A stretch of 64,000 bases of DNA from Curvularia clavata (lineage: Eukaryota). The DNA lies in the NCBI GenBank assembly GCA_023920165.1, contig CP089274.1:3410001-3474000 (forward strand), written 5' to 3'. The position numbers and the translations under genes were made by a program. Positions 8,014 through 60,755 of this stretch are shown piece by piece. A model generated the notes under the pieces. It was not told the origin of the DNA, did not search any database, and worked only from the letters and a program-made list of their open reading frames with translations. Position 1 is the stretch's first letter. Each line of letters begins with the position of its first letter.

Positions 8014-8903
8014 TCTAGACTGTGCTGTCGCGGATGCCGTTGACGGACGGGAGACAATGGACGACTTGATTTGTTTTGGCAGTGCAACCCCGGCGTCCGG
8101 GCTCTGTCGTGGTGCGGTGCGGTGAGTTGCGCAGCCAGCTTCCGCAGAGAAAGGAGGGGTGGTGGTCCGGGTGCGTGTGCTATGCCACGGCCGCAAAACA
8201 AGCGTGCTTACCTAAGGCGTCGCGCTGCCAGGCCGCCCTGTGAGGGTCCTTTGCGGTCCTCGCTGTTTTCGCTGCGTGCTCACCAAAACCTCTCAGTGTA
8301 GACTGCCCATACAATCTCGCGCCTGCGAAACCTTTGGTGAGTCGTCCCCGCCTGCAAATGACGAAGTCGCTTCATCACCAGCACCACTTTTCGCAACCAC
8401 ACCCTTTTTGCACGCGTTTTCCCGGCTCATTTCCCCCAACTACTCCTCTCCCAGCCTTCTTTCTCAATTCTTGCGACTGTCGTCGCTTTCGATTGATTCT
8501 TCGTCGCCGTCACCACCGCGCTCATCCTCGGCCCATCCCATACTGACCGCAAAACAGACCTTTATCAACCCCTTCGATTTTGCTGAATCCCGCTACTTTG
8601 GTGAGTACTCGCTCCTTCTCTCTTCGTAAAATCGCGCATCATCGCGTCGTGCCGTGGTGTTTTGCGACCGCGTCACTCCACGCGCTGCCCAAAGAACCGC
8701 TGCACCCACCACCACTACCCGCGCATTCACCACTACCCAAGATCCCTTTGCCTGCAACCCTGCTAGCGCTGGCCTTTGCCTATATTGCTGGCCTGCCCAC
8801 CACTTACCGCACCTTTCTCCTTTACTTTCTCTCCAAAAATCCCTCTCCCTACTCAACCACCATAGCTCTAATACTCAACAACAGCACATCAACCACCACC
8901 ACC

Positions 8904-9387
8904 ATGCCCAAGGAAAAGACCACCCGCAAGGCTGCCCCCAAGGCCAAGAACGACAGCGGCAAGAAGAAGAAGGGTAAGTTTGCTCACGTGCATTTGCCTA
9001 CTGCTCATTTGCTAACCACTGCAGACCCCAACGCCCCCAAGCGTGGTCTTTCCGCATACATGTTCTTCGCCAACGAGCAGCGCGAGAAGGTCCGCGAGGA
9101 CAACCCCGGCATCAAGTTCGGTAAGTTGAGCACTGTGAGCCCTCTTTTAGTGTGTTTCTAATCTTCTCTCAGGCGAGGTTGGCAAGCTTCTCGGTGAGAA
9201 GTGGAAGGCGCTCAACGAGAAGCAGCGCCAGCCATATGAGGCCAAGGCTGCTCAGGACAAGAAGCGCTACGAGCAAGAGAAGGCCGCTTACCAGGTATGC
9301 TCCATTCTCTGCAAAAGAATCCCCAACCCCTTGACATTCTGCTAACAAACCTAGGCTGCCGACGATGAAGAGGAAGAGTCCGAGTAA
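8904..9387 (+). CDS. NHP6: Non-histone HMG-box protein 6; exons 8904-8973, 9025-9120, 9173-9294, 9355-9387
   Basis: Spliced product [96 protein letters not shown]... is a classic Nhp6 HMG box. All introns are GT-AG with CTAAY branch sites. Confidence 0.96.
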
Positions 9388-10143
9388 AGGAAGCCACTTA
9401 CCAGTGTCTTCTATTACCCTCCAACGGCAACCATGTTGACATCCTGTCGTGCGAGGCCTGGGCCTGACTCTCCCACTCTCTCTCAATTTCTTATGTGATC
9501 TTCCTAGTTTTAATGGGTTCGTAGCTTCCTCGGAGGAATATCTTCGGCTAGCAATTCTGTGGTTCATTGCGATAAGGATAAGTCACAGTTAGTCTCATTT
9601 CAGCGCTGGTGGCTATCGGTCATGATGTTTGGGGCGTCTCATCTTACTTTTGACGCTGTGAAAAGGAGAAACATCACGAAGCTCATGACCAAAGTCTATG
9701 TGTACACTAGTCAAAACTGCGGTATGGAGAATATTTTGCTGCTTAGCTCGTCATGTACTTTTGCGAGTGTCGAGTGATAGACGTGGAGTAGGGGGTGCAC
9801 AGCGTAGCACTGCTCACACTCGCGGTAACTGACATCCCAGCTACGCCTCCCCTAAATGCGTGATGCTGTAGGTGAAGCATAGCATCAGGGCCTTGACAAC
9901 ATGACAGACCCTTTTCCACATATTCACAAGCATAACCCCTTAATCCTGTCATCTTCTGAACTCATTGACCCGACTCCACACCGCTGAACCGGGTACCAGC
10001 ATCTCTCACTCGCGCCTTCCCCGTACAAAGCCACCCCGACCAAACCACTCTTTCTCTCTCTAAACATCCAACTGTATTATACCCCCATCTACATGGCATT
10101 TCTAATTCTCCTTTTCCCCAACAAATCAAAGAAGCATCTTGTA

Positions 10144-10288
10144 GCGTCGTTGGGCTAGTGGCTATGCTATCGCCTTCCCAGCAAATACTGCAAAGAAAGG
10201 CGGGGATCACGGGTGTAAGTGAATGAATAAAACTAGAGAGTTCGAAGACGAGTGCTAACAGATATAAAGTCGAACCCCGTACGGCGCA
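10144..10288 (+). tRNA. tRNA-Gly (anticodon CCC) with a canonical tRNA intron (10181-10197) and a spliceosomal-type intron (10215-10269); exons 10144-10180, 10198-10214, 10270-10288
   Basis: Acceptor stem GCGTCGT/ACGGCGC with discriminator A; D arm GGCT-AGTGGCTA-TGCT; anticodon stem TCGCC/GGCGG with loop TT-CCC-A|A; variable loop GGATC; T stem ACGGG/CCCGT with loop T|TCGAAC. Spliced length is 73 nt, and a T-run lies just downstream. Confidence 0.9.
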
Positions 10289-10296
10289 GTACTTTC

Positions 10297-10302
10297 TTTT
10301 TT
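10297..10302 (+). terminator. RNA polymerase III oligo-T terminator of the tRNA-Gly gene
   Basis: TTTCTTTTTT immediately 3' of the tRNA, with T6 at 10297-10302. Confidence 0.75.
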
Positions 10303-10686
10303 GTGGATATTCTTGCTGGATTGGGGTTGGGGTTGTCTGGGAAGGCGGGGAGGCGGGGTGAGGGCGGAAAGTGGTTGCTCTTATTGAGTATGATGTCACG
10401 AGTAGAATGCGATGGAAGGTGCATCCGTTCTCTATGTGATATTTGTATTCAAGACTTGTAACTTTTTTTCGATAGACGGGCGGTGCAGTGGTAAGCATGT
10501 TTTGATTCATGTACATGCCTCAGGATATCTTTCGAATTCTAGATTCGTCATCTCTCAAGCACAATGCAACAAACATACTTGGGAAGCGGAGCAGCAGGCC
10601 TGGGCCTAATGCAGTTCATGATCGTATGATCAATTCCAACATGTATACCACGTCCACACCTTTTTTTTGTTGCCAACTCACTCACG

Positions 10687-11308
10687 CTATTCCCTCTGCA
10701 ACACCACCATCAACCCCATTATCCCCAGCATGACCTGCTTCAGCCATGGGTGCTCGCTCAGCAGAATGGTAACGTATCCAACAAATGGTATGAAGCCAAC
10801 CACACTCCCAATAACATCTTCTTTGCGGTTGAGAAACGACTGGTCGCGAGCGTAGAGTTCGGTGTCGTCTGCAAGGTTGTTGTCACCTTTTGTGAGCAGT
10901 CGGAGCGGTGTTTTACTGTATCCCAATCATCAGCTCAGAAACACTTTACCAAGACCGTGACAGCGGCATTTATGCTACTGCCGGGTCCGCAAGATATGAT
11001 CAACGCAAGACTCACCCTCCACCATATCTCCTCACCACCCGATGCACAATCGGAATGTCCTTGCCCTTGACATTATACACGACAATCTCTCCTATCTGTG
11101 TGTCCATGCCTCTGTTCCAGAGGAAAAGCAAGTCGCCTCGTTGGAAAGCGGGTTCCATAGATCCGGAGAGTACGACGACAATAGGAGACGGTGAGTTTGA
11201 GACGACGGACAGGCCTTTCCACATCATAAATGCAGTGGAGAGGACGAGTGCGAAGTTCAGGACTTGCGCGGCGAGTTGTCGCGGTTGCATGCCTGCGACG
11301 CCGAACAT
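10687..11308 (-). CDS. SEC11: Signal peptidase complex catalytic subunit; exons 11308-11016 and 10915-10687 (173 aa)
   Basis: [28 protein letters not shown] and LLTKGDNN motifs. One GT-AG intron restores the frame. Confidence 0.96.
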
Positions 11309-43311: not shown

Positions 43312-45594
43312 CTAGGCCCCCACATTGGTTTTTGGAGCCTCCTCTACCGGAGCCTCTCCGACCTTGGCTTTTACAGCTTCTTCTACCTTTGGCTCAGGTG
43401 ACGGCGCTTCTTCGATAATCTCATCAAAGATACCACCTTCTGGTTCTTGGCCCGTACCAATCGCCCGAAGAATCCTCCACGCCCTGCGGAACTCGTCTCG
43501 GATAGCGACTATGCCACGGTGCGTCACTGTTCGCGCGACGTTGTGATCCGTCTCGAAGGGGTCTTCTATGGCGAAGAGATACCGGTTCGTGACCTTCTTT
43601 TCGGCAGTAATCTTCGTTATTGCACTGACCCACCCTTTGCTCTGCTTCGAAAGGATACCACCTGGCGTGCGAAGCGAAAGAACTTCGTTTGTCCAGTGGA
43701 ACTGGGGCGGTCTTGGGTAGCCGTAGCCAGATAAAGCAGCATAGTATTGGAAGAAGCCACGCAGCAACTCTCCGATTGATTGCGTATTCTGCGTCAGACG
43801 GCCTTCTTTTGCTGCCTGTATAATCTCCTCTTCGTTGCGCCAGAAGCGGACTAGATAGCCAGAGATTGTCGTGTTCTTGAAGTATTGCTCCAGAGCAGCC
43901 GCGTCAGTGGGCAGTGGTAAGTTGTGCTGAAGATTTGGGCATACCGGCGGCGTTGCAATATTGACGAGGTAGTGCAGCACCATAAGCACCCATCCATACG
44001 AGGAAAGGGTACCGGAATAGGCGCTGTTGATTTTGCGGCGCTTAGCCCAGGACTTGACGAAGAGAACCATGGGCCGTACCCGAGGATCAGTCAGAGAGTA
44101 ACAACGGAGCATGTGAGTGTTTTGGATGCCAAGCGGGTTTGCGAAGTTGATGTCGCATTGGATACCACAGCCAGTCTTGGGAAAGTCCAGAGGACCAATT
44201 ACCTTTTCCCGCGTCCAAGATTTCTCAGAGCGATTCTGTTGGTCTTTCTTGGCTTTCTGCTCTGTCCCATCACTACCGGCTTCATCTGTTTTCGCAGCGG
44301 GTTGGGGAGATGTGGCCTCTGGAGGCTTTGTCTCCGTTCGAGCCTTCTGTAGGAAGGCAGCTCTTTCCACTAGGTCTGCCCAATTGGCTTCCCAATCTCG
44401 ATCGGTAGTCACTGCTAGATGAGCAGCGAATATCAGTTCATCATCAGTGTCTTTGAATTCCTTGCGAGCAGCAATGTTCCGCTCGTCATCAGCAGGCTCG
44501 AACAACTTGCGGGTAGAGAGTATCAACTCATAATCACTGTCTTTGAATAGCTTTGACCGTGGTAGTAGCTTCATTGGCTGATCTGAAGGGTACTTTTCTT
44601 CTTCAGGGAGGTTGTCCCATTTGCTACGTTCCTCGGTAAGGGCCGTGTACAATGTCTCGGTTGGATGCTGGCAGATCTTCAGAATAGGCACGCGCGTCCG
44701 TGTGAGCAGTCGGCCACCAAACTTTGCATCAAGCACTGCTCGCTCCAACAAACGTGGAACGCTACGATCAATCGCAGTATCATTGGATCTGGTGGGATCT
44801 TTCCATTCTGGTATGACTGCAAGGTCCATATCTGAGCCAGGAAGCCCAAAGCCCGATGCCAGACTGCCAAAGCCGACGAGAGAGATGTTCACTATGTCTC
44901 CCGAGTAGTCCCTGGCAAGTGCTTCTCGCATGATCGCTTCCAGTTGCCGCCTGAACTCCTCTTTGGACTCCAACTCGGACATGGACATTTCAACTTTGGG
45001 AATCTCTTCTGAAGCAATTGTTTCGAGATGTTGGATCTGAGCCTGGGGGTTTTCCTGTGGCTGGATTCTCTGTGTGTGAGGCATATGCGAGTTGAATGGG
45101 CGAGTATCTCCTGGTGGTCGTTGGAGAAATCTTGGAGGATGTGCACGGGGTGTGCCATCTGCATTTGAGTTCCACTGCTGATGAGGCGTCCTGAATGGTC
45201 TAGAAACTTGTTGCGCTTGATTGCCTGGAGGCAAGTCACTTCCAGGCGCGCTATAGAAATTTGCCGAGGACTGCTGATATCGCTGATTGGGGTAGTGTCC
45301 CCGTCCGCCCCCTCTGGGGTGAGGAGTGTTCATTGAGTCGTTCGCATGTTGCCTTTGATTTTGAGCCTGAGTTTGACTCAGAGCAGAGTGATCCTGATGG
45401 GAACCATCAGTGCCACTGGAAAAGCTCCCGCGTCCTCTGCCTCTACCTCGGCCCCGGCCTCGTCCTCGCCCGCGGCCGCGATTCGTGAACTGGGGTTCTT
45501 GGCTGATCGGTCCACCTATGCTCACATTACTAAGTATCATGTTGCGCAACTGGCTCTCCAGTCCAGTGGAATGTGATGAAGTTGTCTGCTCCAT
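43312..45594 (-). CDS. Cid1-family non-canonical poly(A)/poly(U) polymerase (terminal uridylyltransferase-like)
   Basis: GFGSLASGFGLPGSDMDL catalytic motif, RTRVPILK, CDINFAN, VKSWAKRRKIN..GTLSSY and nucleotide-recognition loop AIEDPFETDHNVAR. Confidence 0.88.
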   Translation of the reverse strand: MEQTTSSHSTGLESQLRNMILSNVSIGGPISQEPQFTNRGRGRGRGRGRGRGRGRGSFSSGTDGSHQDHSALSQTQAQNQRQHANDSMNTPHPRGGGRGHYPNQRYQQSSANFYSAPGSDLPPGNQAQQVSRPFRTPHQQWNSNADGTPRAHPPRFLQRPPGDTRPFNSHMPHTQRIQPQENPQAQIQHLETIASEEIPKVEMSMSELESKEEFRRQLEAIMREALARDYSGDIVNISLVGFGSLASGFGLPGSDMDLAVIPEWKDPTRSNDTAIDRSVPRLLERAVLDAKFGGRLLTRTRVPILKICQHPTETLYTALTEERSKWDNLPEEEKYPSDQPMKLLPRSKLFKDSDYELILSTRKLFEPADDERNIAARKEFKDTDDELIFAAHLAVTTDRDWEANWADLVERAAFLQKARTETKPPEATSPQPAAKTDEAGSDGTEQKAKKDQQNRSEKSWTREKVIGPLDFPKTGCGIQCDINFANPLGIQNTHMLRCYSLTDPRVRPMVLFVKSWAKRRKINSAYSGTLSSYGWVLMVLHYLVNIATPPVCPNLQHNLPLPTDAAALEQYFKNTTISGYLVRFWRNEEEIIQAAKEGRLTQNTQSIGELLRGFFQYYAALSGYGYPRPPQFHWTNEVLSLRTPGGILSKQSKGWVSAITKITAEKKVTNRYLFAIEDPFETDHNVARTVTHRGIVAIRDEFRRAWRILRAIGTGQEPEGGIFDEIIEEAPSPEPKVEEAVKAKVGEAPVEEAPKTNVGA

Positions 45595-46243
45595 TTTGTT
45601 GGGTTAGTGGAGTGATGGTTTAGTCTCTTTTCTTTTGAAGTCTCTGCTGCCCGCAGAAGATGACGGTTGCAAAGGCCAGAACTGTCTCGATGTATTCTTC
45701 TTTCCAAGAATATGGCGGTGTGATTGTATGCTCTTGAGGAACAATCGCTCTAGTAGCAGGCCAGTTCCTCCTTTGAGGTTTCTTGTGGCGGTTGCAATGT
45801 CACCGTTACAGGCCCGAGGCCCTTGGCTGAGGCCGCCGCACTCTGACTACACGGGTGCCTAGAGTGGAGTGAGAAGTCGATATTTTTCTGGCTCAGCCTC
45901 CATGTGTCCAAGAGACTTTGATTCCGACCGCGCCCCTGTTGGTGCAAGCAAGCGCAAACTGTTGGTTACAATTAATGGCAATGCTTGAACTGTTGGTCAT
46001 AGTGGCACTATGGGGGGGCTGAGGGCAGGGCAGGGCAGGGCAGGGCCTCACGGTGAGCGTTTGGCCTTGGCGCGCTAATCGACTAGCGTGGAGCTGTGAC
46101 GTTCCAACTGCGGTTCGGTCTCGAAACACAACGCTCCTTGGGACAAAGGCGACTTTCTTCGTCTCCGGCCAGTCTTTATCTGCCCACCTGCTGCCCACCT
46201 GCTTCCTTCATTCTTGTCTCCATCTCAACAGCCACGCTCCACG

Positions 46244-48379
46244 ATGAACGGCGTCATGAATGGAAGCCAACAGCCTGCTGCTGCCCCTGCTGCGCCTGTC
46301 GCCTCAAATGGCCAGCAGCAGACGCAGACGCAGACGCAACCGCAGCAGCAGGCACCTGTTCGCCGCCGTCGCCCGCGCCCCCAAGCCGATGTCCTGCGAA
46401 AGCCGCGTCGCCCACTGCAGAACATCACGAAGCCCATGGTATCTTTATCGAAGATGAACGAAAGCAGGAAGCCTCCGCCAGGTCCCGCGGCCGATGGCAC
46501 TCATTCCAAAGACGCGCTGCGACAGGAGTATCTTGACAAAGGTGCTACCGTCTTTCCGCTCATTGTCAGCCGCAAGGACCTGAAAGAACTGCGACACCAT
46601 GTTATGCGGCTCCAGAGCAAGAGTCACGTTGATATTACCGATGAGAAACAGTTCACGCCACCCATCAAACTCCATCGCCGCGACCCCCGCGCGCCCCCAA
46701 GCGGAATAGGATCACACTACGAAGAAGAAGACACAAAAGAGGACCTGGAAGAGATCAAAGAGCGTGAGCGCATTGAACAGCAGAAGGAAGAGCGCCGCAA
46801 GGTACGCGAGGAGAACCAGGCCAAGATTGCGCCCACTGGCATGAAGAAGCCTCCTGCCTTCCAGAAGAAGACAGAGCAGAAGTACCGGCCCGATGATACC
46901 CCAGAAGCAAAGAAGCGGCAACTGTTGCGCTACGAAGAGACGCTGCCATGGCACTTGGAAGATTATGAGAACAAGCAGACGTGGGTAGGCACCTACGAGT
47001 CAGAGCTATCCGAGACACACGTCATGCTCACAGCTACACGGCCTGGCGATCCGAGCACAGCCATACAGATGGCGCCCATGGAGCGCTGGTACAGATTCAA
47101 CGTCAAGGGCAAGATCAAAGCGGCGGGTGATGATGTAGACAAAATCCTGGCCAAGGTCGAGAGCGGCGGGCCTAGATTCTTTGCTGAGCTTGAGAGGCGT
47201 CAAGTAGAGCGTGCCAAGGCTGAAGAAGAAGCAAGAAAGTTCAGTGGAGTGCGCACACGTGTGGGCGGTGGTGCAGACGACGAGGGCCGAATCAAGCGGG
47301 AACGTCCTGGCGAAGATACATTCCGGCCCAAGCTGGAGGTTGATGCTGATGATATCGATTTCAACCTTGAAGAAGACTTTGCAGATGATGAAGAAGGTCT
47401 CAACGGTCTCTTTGAGGGTGAGGAGCAGGACGTCAAAGAAGCAGCTGAGAAGCTGAAACGCGACCAACTACAAGCAGCACTTTGGGATCGTCCTGATGAG
47501 GAAGCCCTAGCTCAAAAGGAAGAAGAGGACCGAAAGCTTGCCGAGGAAACAAGAGCTATGGAGAAGATCACGCGCAAGACACTAGCCAAACGCGAGAAGC
47601 AATACGACTATCTCGACAGCGACCCTGAGAATCCCTACCTTACTGAGAGTGAATCAGATACTGACTCTGAAGCGGAGCGACAGCAAGCAAAGGAAGAGGC
47701 GGAGAAGAAAGCCGCTGAGCAAAATGGCAAAGCACCAGAAGCTGGCAATGTTCCGTCTGGTGCATCCACCAAGGGCTCTAACACTCCTTCAGGGAACCAT
47801 AAGCCAGGGGAATCCAAGAGCAAGAAACGGCCCGGCTCGCCCAACCTTTCGGAAGCTAGTGGCAACGAATCGTCGCGTAAGAAGCACAAGAAGAAACACC
47901 ACGATAAGCTGGCTGATGGGTCTCGAAAATCCACTCTCGGTAATCTCAAGGGCGCAGGTTCTGGTAGTGACAGTGAGATGACCGACGCTGGTAAGAAGCG
48001 CAAGAAAGAAAAGAAAGAGAAGAATCGCCTCATGCATGGCGGATCTCCTGTCGGCACTCCTGGTGCCAGCCGAGCAGGCAGCCCAGCAGCGAATGGCAGC
48101 CGCGCTGGCAGCCCGTCGGGCGGCCCATCCAGACCTCCTCTACCTTCTGCAAAAGAGATTTACGAATCATTGCCACCTCAAGGCATGAACATTCAAAATC
48201 TCATTGTGAAGTTCAAAGGTCGTGTTGACAAAAGCAACACGCAACTGTTTATCAAGCTGGTCAAGGCTGTCTCTAGCTTTGACAAAGCGAAGAGTTGGCT
48301 CACGCCATTGGAGAAGATGCCGTCTGAAGATCAAATCAACGCATTTATGAATACTGCCAATGCACCCAGACCTACGTAG
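46244..48379 (+). CDS. TFG1: Transcription initiation factor IIF large (alpha) subunit
   Basis: LRHHVMRLQS, PIKLHRRDPR, LRYEETLPWHLED, TWVGTYE, ERWYRF, acidic DIDFNLEEDFADDEE and a charged C-terminal region. Confidence 0.88.
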   Translation: MNGVMNGSQQPAAAPAAPVASNGQQQTQTQTQPQQQAPVRRRRPRPQADVLRKPRRPLQNITKPMVSLSKMNESRKPPPGPAADGTHSKDALRQEYLDKGATVFPLIVSRKDLKELRHHVMRLQSKSHVDITDEKQFTPPIKLHRRDPRAPPSGIGSHYEEEDTKEDLEEIKERERIEQQKEERRKVREENQAKIAPTGMKKPPAFQKKTEQKYRPDDTPEAKKRQLLRYEETLPWHLEDYENKQTWVGTYESELSETHVMLTATRPGDPSTAIQMAPMERWYRFNVKGKIKAAGDDVDKILAKVESGGPRFFAELERRQVERAKAEEEARKFSGVRTRVGGGADDEGRIKRERPGEDTFRPKLEVDADDIDFNLEEDFADDEEGLNGLFEGEEQDVKEAAEKLKRDQLQAALWDRPDEEALAQKEEEDRKLAEETRAMEKITRKTLAKREKQYDYLDSDPENPYLTESESDTDSEAERQQAKEEAEKKAAEQNGKAPEAGNVPSGASTKGSNTPSGNHKPGESKSKKRPGSPNLSEASGNESSRKKHKKKHHDKLADGSRKSTLGNLKGAGSGSDSEMTDAGKKRKKEKKEKNRLMHGGSPVGTPGASRAGSPAANGSRAGSPSGGPSRPPLPSAKEIYESLPPQGMNIQNLIVKFKGRVDKSNTQLFIKLVKAVSSFDKAKSWLTPLEKMPSEDQINAFMNTANAPRPT

Positions 48380-59975: not shown

Positions 59976-60755
59976 TTTGGAGTGCTTTCGTTACACTATC
60001 TTTATGTGTAGAGATAGGGACACCCAGTGAATGAACGAAAAGAAGGGTGATAGGGTACATAAACTCTACTCAGCCTTGGTGTCGATGCAGCGATATGGGA
60101 TAACAAACAACTCTACCCTTGACGATATGGAGGTTAGATTGCAAACATGGCAGCAGCAACAAACTATATCTATGAAAGCCGTTTGCTTCATTGCAGCCTA
60201 TTGCTATTTGCTCGCGAGGCTGAGGCACTAATAAGCACAATTAATCGCACTCCAATGAGGCCTGGACACATTGGGCGCTTAATGCGCAGTGGTATCACTG
60301 TGCCGCATCCATGCATGTGTGACATACGTAGGCAATGAAGCTATTGGATGAGGCTGAGTCGGGCTGATAGCTGAGCCATGAGGACGCGCCGTCCCGCACG
60401 CCACTCTGGGTACGGGCTGATCACAGCCTTTGGACGTAACGACTGATGCAAGCTCCAGTTTTAGCGATCAAATTTGCGTGAATGGGTACCCGTTTTCAGG
60501 AAGATTAGTAGCAAGATATCGTTTCTCGCCCGTTGAAGACAACGCATGAGTATTGTTATTGAGCTGGACCCAGGCTGGCACTAGGGAGGAATGCATTGTT
60601 GCTCCTCCCACTAGGTGTACGTATTCCACTGGTCCAACTCCGCGTCCACTGGTAGAGCGCTATGGAAATCGTAGCGTACGTGGCTATGAGCCTCCATTAT
60701 CTACATTGAAAGCTGCATACCCTAAACTCCTACCAGACCATGATCATTATAGCAC

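Follow-up and report, generated by a model that had tools for sequence, protein, structure and literature searches.

A tRNA-Gly(CCC) gene lying within the 64,000-nt stretch of DNA analysed here (the window) is interrupted twice, once in the anticodon loop and once in the T loop, and the second insert bears the signals of an mRNA intron. This locus raises the question of whether a tRNA gene can harbour a spliceosomal intron, and whether the tRNA would need the spliceosome for its maturation.

In eukaryotes, tRNA introns lie between positions 37 and 38 and show no conserved terminal motifs; the SEN endonuclease recognises them by structure, N32-N35 pairing with the intron and the cuts falling in 3-nt bulges (PMC10275265). 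The reviews of 2023-2026 consulted here place tRNA introns at 37/38, assign their removal to SEN without a part for the spliceosome, and present the types of nuclear intron as having no relation to one another (PMC10275265, PMC13149111, PMC12530127). A full-text literature search, with subscription journals mostly outside its coverage, likewise retrieved no description of a spliceosomal intron in a tRNA gene, in line with a first-pass annotation of the locus, whose author was aware of none.

Judged from the sequence comparisons presented below, the T-loop insert is best explained, with a probability of about 0.65, as a genuine spliceosomal intron, passed on by inheritance, in a Pol III-transcribed tRNA-Gly(CCC) gene that is functional and belongs to a filamentous-type fungus. 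As a second, canonical intron is present at 37/38, the tRNA would need both splicing systems. We lean slightly towards the stronger proposal that no tRNA known before this one would require both machineries, the spliceosome as well as SEN and ligase, and that the arrangement has been inherited across species.

Structure of the interrupted gene

The features of the gene and of the introns in its neighbours are collected in Table 1. The limits of the gene (10144..10288), T54, GTAAGT, GCTAAC (10254-10259), the branch adenine (A10258) and the end of AAG at 10269 had all been placed correctly in the first-pass annotation. It had also held that excision of the 55-nt insert rebuilds the T loop and the paired stems and leaves a 73-nt body. 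The restoration of the loop and stems stands; the length does not, for 90 nt are left when only the 55-nt insert is taken away, and the 73-nt body is obtained only when the 17-nt intron is taken out too.

Table 1. Position of the tRNA-Gly(CCC) gene parts, putative processing signals and neighbouring mRNA introns in the window
Feature	Position	Strand	Remarks
tRNA-Gly(CCC) gene, whole, including two inserts	10144-10288	+	sequence read directly
tRNA exon 1, positions 1-37	10144-10180	+	acceptor 5' strand, D arm, anticodon stem/loop to A37
A-box region within exon 1	10151-10161	+	intact
Canonical tRNA intron, 17 nt	10181-10197	+	between 37 and 38; SEN/ligase type
tRNA exon 2, positions 38-54	10198-10214	+	anticodon stem 3' strand, variable loop GGATC, T stem ACGGG, T54
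Predicted mRNA-type (U2-type GT-AG) intron, 55 nt	10215-10269	+	between T54 (10214) and T55
5' splice site GTAAGT	10215-10220	+	same hexamer in NHP6 introns 1 and 2
GTTCGA intron motif	10240-10245	+	exact complement of exon 3 TCGAAC; matches 6-nt Pol III B box core
Branch-site motif TGCTAAC	10253-10259	+	branch A 10258, 11 nt before 3' splice site; heptamer in NHP6 introns 1 and 3
3' splice site AG	10268-10269	+	AAG in window
tRNA exon 3, positions 55-73	10270-10288	+	TCGAAC, T stem CCCGT, acceptor ACGGCGC, discriminator A
T6 run	10297-10302	+	likely Pol III terminator, 9 nt past gene
NHP6 intron 1, 51 nt	8974-9024	+	GTAAGT..TGCTAAC..CAG; skipped in 3/4 runs
NHP6 intron 2, 52 nt	9121-9172	+	GTAAGT..TTCTAAT..CAG; skipped in 4/4 runs
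NHP6 intron 3, 60 nt	9295-9354	+	GTATGC..TGCTAAC..TAG; skipped in 4/4 runs
SEC11 intron, 100 nt	10916-11015	-	GTGAGT..CAG, without CTAAC-type motif; skipped in 4/4 runs

With both inserts removed, the resulting 73-mer forms a cloverleaf in which 20 of the 21 pairs are standard, U13.U22 being the sole exception in the structure check. The same 73-mer displays U8, A14, the D-loop GG, U33, an anticodon loop UUCCCAA, a T loop UUCGAAC and A73.

The gene escapes detection in its native form. No tRNA was reported by ARAGORN in the native window, nor by Rfam, either at gathering scores on the window or at E values up to 10 on 10050-10400; an lncRNA match obtained from Rfam in the latter interval at the loose threshold (E 1.9) is a chance match. 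After scripted deletion of 10215-10269, ARAGORN returned a tRNA of 73 nt holding an intron of 17 nt. Removal of exactly this segment converts DNA in which no tRNA is detectable into a tRNA with 20 of 21 standard pairs and a standard T loop, which speaks for the intron reading. ARAGORN places the small intron of the window at 35/36 and hence calls Trp(cca), whereas the canonical 37/38 cut gives the anticodon loop UUCCCAA, that is, Gly(CCC). The Gly(CCC) isotype is assigned to this gene and to its ortholog in a second fungus (see below) because ARAGORN calls the latter Gly(ccc) and the exons of the two are alike at 72/73 positions. At the third-from-last base of the small intron the window has G and the ortholog A, both of them able to pair with U32.

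Resemblance of the T-loop insert to mRNA introns

The 55-nt insert is located at 54/55 and not at the SEN-type 37/38 position, where the separate 17-nt insert does sit. Its first bases, GTAAGT, fit the 5' splice site consensus GTRNGT and are identical in the ortholog. TGCTAAC fits the branch site consensus CTRAY, and the distance from the branch A to the G of the terminal AG is 11 nt in the window and 17 nt in the ortholog. The 3' splice site AG is present in both, as AAG in the window, where the preceding base is not Y, and as TAG in the ortholog; the segment between branch site and 3' splice site is purine-rich in the window insert, and this and the AAG weigh against the spliceosomal reading.

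The neighbouring genes provide a local standard for comparison. The tRNA gene lies between convergent NHP6 (upstream, + strand, 8884-9708) and SEC11 (downstream, - strand), which are represented among transcript contigs from four public runs (X1, X9, X13 and X17). Since the introns of both genes are skipped in these contigs, all four runs are transcript-derived. The inserts measure 55 nt (window) and 86 nt (ortholog), against 51, 52, 60 and 100 nt for the four RNA-verified neighbouring introns. A likeness to these introns in size and signals had been noted at first reading, and it holds for the 55-nt length as for GTAAGT and TGCTAAC.

The orthologous locus in a second fungus

Metagenome contigs were scanned with the 19-nt 3' exon as query, and nine loci matched. 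Three of these (L001, L003 and L005) carry an identical 193-nt gene and represent one species. In L005, SEC11, the tRNA and NHP6 occur in the order and orientation of the window, and L005 is therefore taken to be the orthologous locus of another fungus. The remaining matches were set aside: L002, L004, L006 and L008 are chance matches in GC-rich DNA, and L007 and L009 hold an unrelated intron-less tRNA and not an ortholog.

The ortholog has an insert of 86 nt at exactly the same 54/55 site. When ARAGORN is run on L005 minus this insert, the call is tRNA-Gly(ccc), the intron at position 37 being 35 nt long, i(37,35). Pairwise alignment of the tRNA exons of the window with those of L005 gives 36/37, 17/17 and 19/19 identical positions, and the one difference is an indel in the D loop. 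The two T-loop inserts are alike in 29/86 alignment columns, to be set beside identities of 37-61% for the NHP6 introns and 30% for the SEC11 intron, hence 30-61% for the neighbouring mRNA introns. GTAAGT (6/6), GTTCGA (6/6), TGCTAAC (7/7) and the final AG are common to both inserts, which are otherwise unalignable. In both species GTTCGA sits 9 nt ahead of CTAAC, and these 9 nt differ at 7. The introns at 37/38, of 17 nt in the window and 35 nt in L005, share the site and 8/35 columns. Identity between window and L005 is 87-92% for coding exons (68% for the 5' SEC11 segment, which may extend beyond the coding part) and 41-52% for intergenic DNA.

Failure of the splice signals to persist at orthologous loci had been named beforehand as a refutation of the intron. 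In the two species compared, the signals are kept and the interior has diverged to the same extent as the mRNA introns nearby. Conserved exons and splice signals around an interior free to vary form the pattern that would be expected of a spliceosomal intron derived from a common ancestor, and one point to be held against this reading is that the comparison involves two species only. Among the three metagenome copies, 0/193 gene columns vary against 21/1452 flank columns, a difference that is not significant and includes some end artefacts.

Control for chance occurrence

Every GT..AG segment of 32-200 nt was deleted from the window and from L005, on both strands, and ARAGORN was run on each product, 84,944 candidates in all. 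A tRNA extending across the joint was obtained in three cases: this locus, its ortholog and one poor Thr call. The last, at 60611-60755 on the minus strand after a 145-nt deletion, has mismatched stems and lacks the T-loop consensus. The same defects led to rejection of a tRNA-Leu (45407-46487) with a 989-nt 'intron', reported by ARAGORN -i on the window. In 128 kb, both strands counted, there are 7 occurrences of the composite GTAAGT..CTAAC..AG and 8 of TGCTAAC. The insert is not a random interruption, and the pattern is beyond chance.

Transcription signals and transcript contigs

An oligo-T run follows directly after both genes, T6 in the window and T10 at the equivalent place in the ortholog; runs of T6 or longer are found in only 0.75% of 25-nt windows across the 64 kb. 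Inside the gene the longest T run is 2 (window) or 3 (ortholog), although the lack of an internal T4+ run does not discriminate, being shared by 66% of 145-nt and 58% of 193-nt windows. In the DNA the A-box region is intact, and the insert splits the B box, which corresponds to tRNA positions 52-62 (PMC3978253); Pol III transcription is for this reason not assured. Two partial B boxes can be discerned when judged against the B-box consensus. Intronic GTTCGA corresponds to positions 53-58 only, with no match at 52 or at 59-62, and AGTCGAACCCC, at the 3' junction, is correct at positions 55-62 only.

GTTCGA may have another role. In the MFE folds of both species it pairs with TCGAAC of exon 3 (10270-10275) in a helix that extends the T stem, with the branch site and 3' splice site in the hairpin loop. 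Since TTCGAA is palindromic, a promoter role and a helix role would each mimic the other. The odds between pairing with exon 3 and a B-block promoter core are roughly even.

As to the RNA, contigs of NHP6 end at about 9708-9743 and those of SEC11 at about 10388-10704, and the tRNA falls in the gap between these apparent 3' ends of the mRNAs. Contigs from three of the four runs cross the locus colinearly with the DNA and retain both inserts, and may derive from either strand: X1 record 1 (9353-10915), X17 record 8 (9353-10433) and X9 record 14 (9956-10330). The first two also contain spliced NHP6 exons. Run X13 has zero cover between 9959 and 10387. Unspliced RNA, or contaminating DNA, covering the tRNA locus exists. 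The joint 10214/10270 was found in 0/4 runs. Neither this result nor the lack of cover in X13 is a sign that splicing is absent; such contigs drop rare forms and seldom capture a mature, modified 73-nt tRNA. The initial proposal that the tRNA depends on the spliceosome for its maturation is, then, upheld in part: the splice signals are kept in the ortholog and no bulge-helix-bulge (BHB) is shared, but the contigs contain no spliced junction, the chief weakness of the proposal.

Two further observations concern run X9. Record 14 is a separate contig of 375 nt, at a low depth of 5.6, that extends beyond the tRNA gene by 188 nt on the upstream and 42 nt on the downstream side; the bins on either side are uncovered, and the contig is unspliced and longer than a Pol III unit. 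The run also contains a second contig set that differs from the window by about 10% over the NHP6 3' region (9360-9510; 15 other letters and 6 gaps in 146 nt) and SEC11 (10693-10915; 24 in 222), from which the presence of a related fungus in the sample is deduced. None of the diverged contigs listed lies over the tRNA.

The contigs bear on the possibility that the insert is spliceosomal and the transcript is driven by Pol II, the tRNA residing in an NHP6 read-through or in a separate non-coding RNA; the T-loop intron would be spliced out co-transcriptionally, and RNase P and RNase Z would then release the tRNA. A Pol II host transcript is possible because the contigs reach beyond the Pol III unit: X9 record 14 extends far past it, and in X1 record 1 and X17 record 8 the tRNA locus is continuous with spliced NHP6 exons. 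The split B box would also fit. However, the same contigs retain the T-loop intron though the NHP6 introns are gone, a contig across two genes does not prove a single transcript, and the intact A-box region and the oligo-T after the gene in both species are features of a Pol III gene. We consider this origin unlikely, although it is the best placed of the competing explanations.

Evidence for a functional tRNA

The unspliced contigs, the failure of tRNA finders to recognise the gene and the split B box might also belong to a locus that gives no working tRNA, whether a disabled copy, a TFIIIC-bound boundary site or the source of a tRNA-like RNA, in which the insert is never removed. Against this, all 73 tRNA positions are kept, with one D-loop indel, amid saturated neutral DNA, and both inserts preserve the features required for their removal. 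A boundary element, moreover, would not keep a branch site, a 5' splice site or the exact restoration of the T loop. Loss of function is accordingly held to be improbable, a little more so than a Pol II origin. The first-pass annotation also supposed that dependence on the spliceosome would link pre-mRNA splicing to GGG decoding; this link is conjectural, as an intact second copy of tRNA-Gly(CCC), or reading of GGG by tRNA-Gly(UCC), may exist.

Possible protein-based excision of the T-loop insert

The insert could also be cut out by a protein endonuclease and rejoined by a ligase, for example by SEN acting on a relaxed structure, as has been proposed for ectopic tRNA introns in Cyanidioschyzon merolae and the Guillardia nucleomorph, with the mRNA-like signals incidental. 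Every tRNA intron known in eukaryotes follows this route (PMC10275265, PMC3978253), many ectopic introns of nucleomorphs are without a defined BHB (PMC3978253), and SEN is in any case required here for the intron at 37/38. In the window, however, no 4-bp BHB central helix was found for the T-loop insert with bulges of 2-4 nt in all cut registers. The L005 insert offers one off-register, G.U-rich helix (GGGT/GTCT), where the cut falls on the helix edge; the window has no counterpart, so that no shared BHB can be drawn. The MFE folds of the two species do not place the cut sites of the T-loop insert in bulges. The BHB scan has little power, since a strict BHB is likewise missing for the canonical intron of the window. 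More weight attaches to the fact that GTAAGT, TGCTAAC and AG are not needed by SEN, yet have survived in an otherwise saturated insert. The ruler mechanism of eukaryotic SEN, in addition, measures to the anticodon loop and not to the T loop, which also counts against SEN. Excision by protein endonuclease is the least likely of these alternatives. An IRE1/HAC1-type intron can be dismissed, as the junctions are by eye unlike the CNGCNGN loops described in PMC12530127, and so can a group I or II intron, for which 55 nt is too short.

Proposed maturation pathway

If the T-loop insert is a spliceosomal intron of a Pol III gene, the following pathway can be envisaged. Pol III would transcribe from the intact A box and stop at the oligo-T run, yielding a precursor of about 165 nt. 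The pre-tRNA would retain its acceptor and T stems, and intronic GTTCGA would pair with TCGAAC of exon 3; the 5' splice site would then fall within an internal loop, and the hairpin loop would hold both the branch site and the 3' splice site. Instead of this, or as well, GTTCGA may serve as a B-block promoter core in the manner of S. pombe U6. The nuclear spliceosome would then take out the T-loop intron, restoring T54-Psi55 and the TTCGAAC T loop, after which SEN endonuclease and tRNA ligase would clear the intron of the anticodon loop at 37/38. In budding yeast SEN acts after export, which would fit an order in which the spliceosome comes first.

Relation to known introns

The closest parallel is the U6 gene of S. 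pombe, whose mRNA-type intron was reportedly described by Tani and Ohshima in 1989 and by Frendewey et al. in 1990. This U6 is a Pol III product; the spliceosome excises its intron, within which the B block is situated (PMC5855946). The tRNA-Gly gene resembles it in combining a short GT-AG intron with canonical signals, a small structured RNA and a Pol III promoter of the A-block/B-block kind, which in the tRNA-Gly gene is presumed. Where the U6 intron holds the B block, the tRNA-Gly intron holds the conserved GTTCGA, a B-box core of 6 nt only. The two differ in that the host here is a tRNA and not an snRNA of the spliceosome active site, and in that splicing is established for U6 and is predicted from sequence for the tRNA. 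The reverse-splicing origin proposed for the U6 intron is without obvious footing here, because a tRNA is not in the spliceosome's active site.

Spliceosomal introns are also known in U1, U2 and U5 of Rhodotorula hasegawae, in fungal U6 paralogues and in ascomycete rDNA, some of them inherited and others lineage-specific (PMC5855946). The tRNA-Gly intron shares with them canonical 5' splice, branch and 3' splice sites and a non-conserved interior. It departs from them in its host, for no tRNA figures among the hosts that this review lists.

In relation to canonical SEN introns, the 17-nt insert at 37/38 fits the type, whereas the 55-nt insert differs from it in its 54/55 site and its conserved terminal motifs. 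Introns outside 37/38, interrupted A and B boxes and more than one intron per tRNA are found, as in this gene, in Cyanidioschyzon merolae, in the Guillardia theta nucleomorph and in Archaea (PMC3978253). The introns of these groups, of 11-69 bp in C. merolae, are BHB-mediated or at least without GT-AG and branch signals (PMC3978253). In contrast, the 55-nt insert bears the signals of the organism's own mRNA introns. C. merolae also seems, from the same source, to be without the TFIIIC subunits that bind the A and B boxes (PMC3978253).

If the proposed reading is correct, the division between tRNA introns and spliceosomal introns would be broken, and tRNA would join U1, U2, U5, U6 and rRNA as a new class of host for spliceosomal introns. 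A second example from nature would be gained of a Pol III transcript on which the spliceosome acts, and Pol III pre-tRNAs would be among the substrates open to it. As tRNA does not lie near the spliceosome active site, the locus would also bear on the origin of new spliceosomal introns. Should GTTCGA prove to be a B block, the placement of a promoter within an intron would be convergent with that of S. pombe U6. In practical terms, standard tRNA finders would be overlooking a class of real tRNA genes; tRNAscan-type gene sets are possibly incomplete, since ARAGORN and Rfam both miss this tRNA-Gly(CCC) gene.

Additional features of the locus

A minus-strand stop-to-stop frame of 185 aa (9962-10519) runs across the tRNA; its counterparts in L005 fall in different frames, and it is probably not a gene. 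Just past the tRNA terminator, on the + strand at 10318-10368, lies a G-rich tract (GGGGTTGGGGTTG...GGCGGGGAGGCGGGGTGAGGGCGG), and the ortholog likewise becomes G-rich after its T run.

The tRNA found on the AT-rich contigs L007 (about 1010-1084) and L009 (about 967-1041) has the acceptor stem and T arm of the fungal tRNA-Gly, with different D and anticodon arms. Its anticodon loop, read by eye as CTTTTAA, would make it a Lys(UUU) tRNA.

The linkage of NHP6 to the tRNA is kept in both species. The yeast NHP6 homologue promotes Pol III transcription of U6 (PMC5855946), and the linkage is probably a coincidence.
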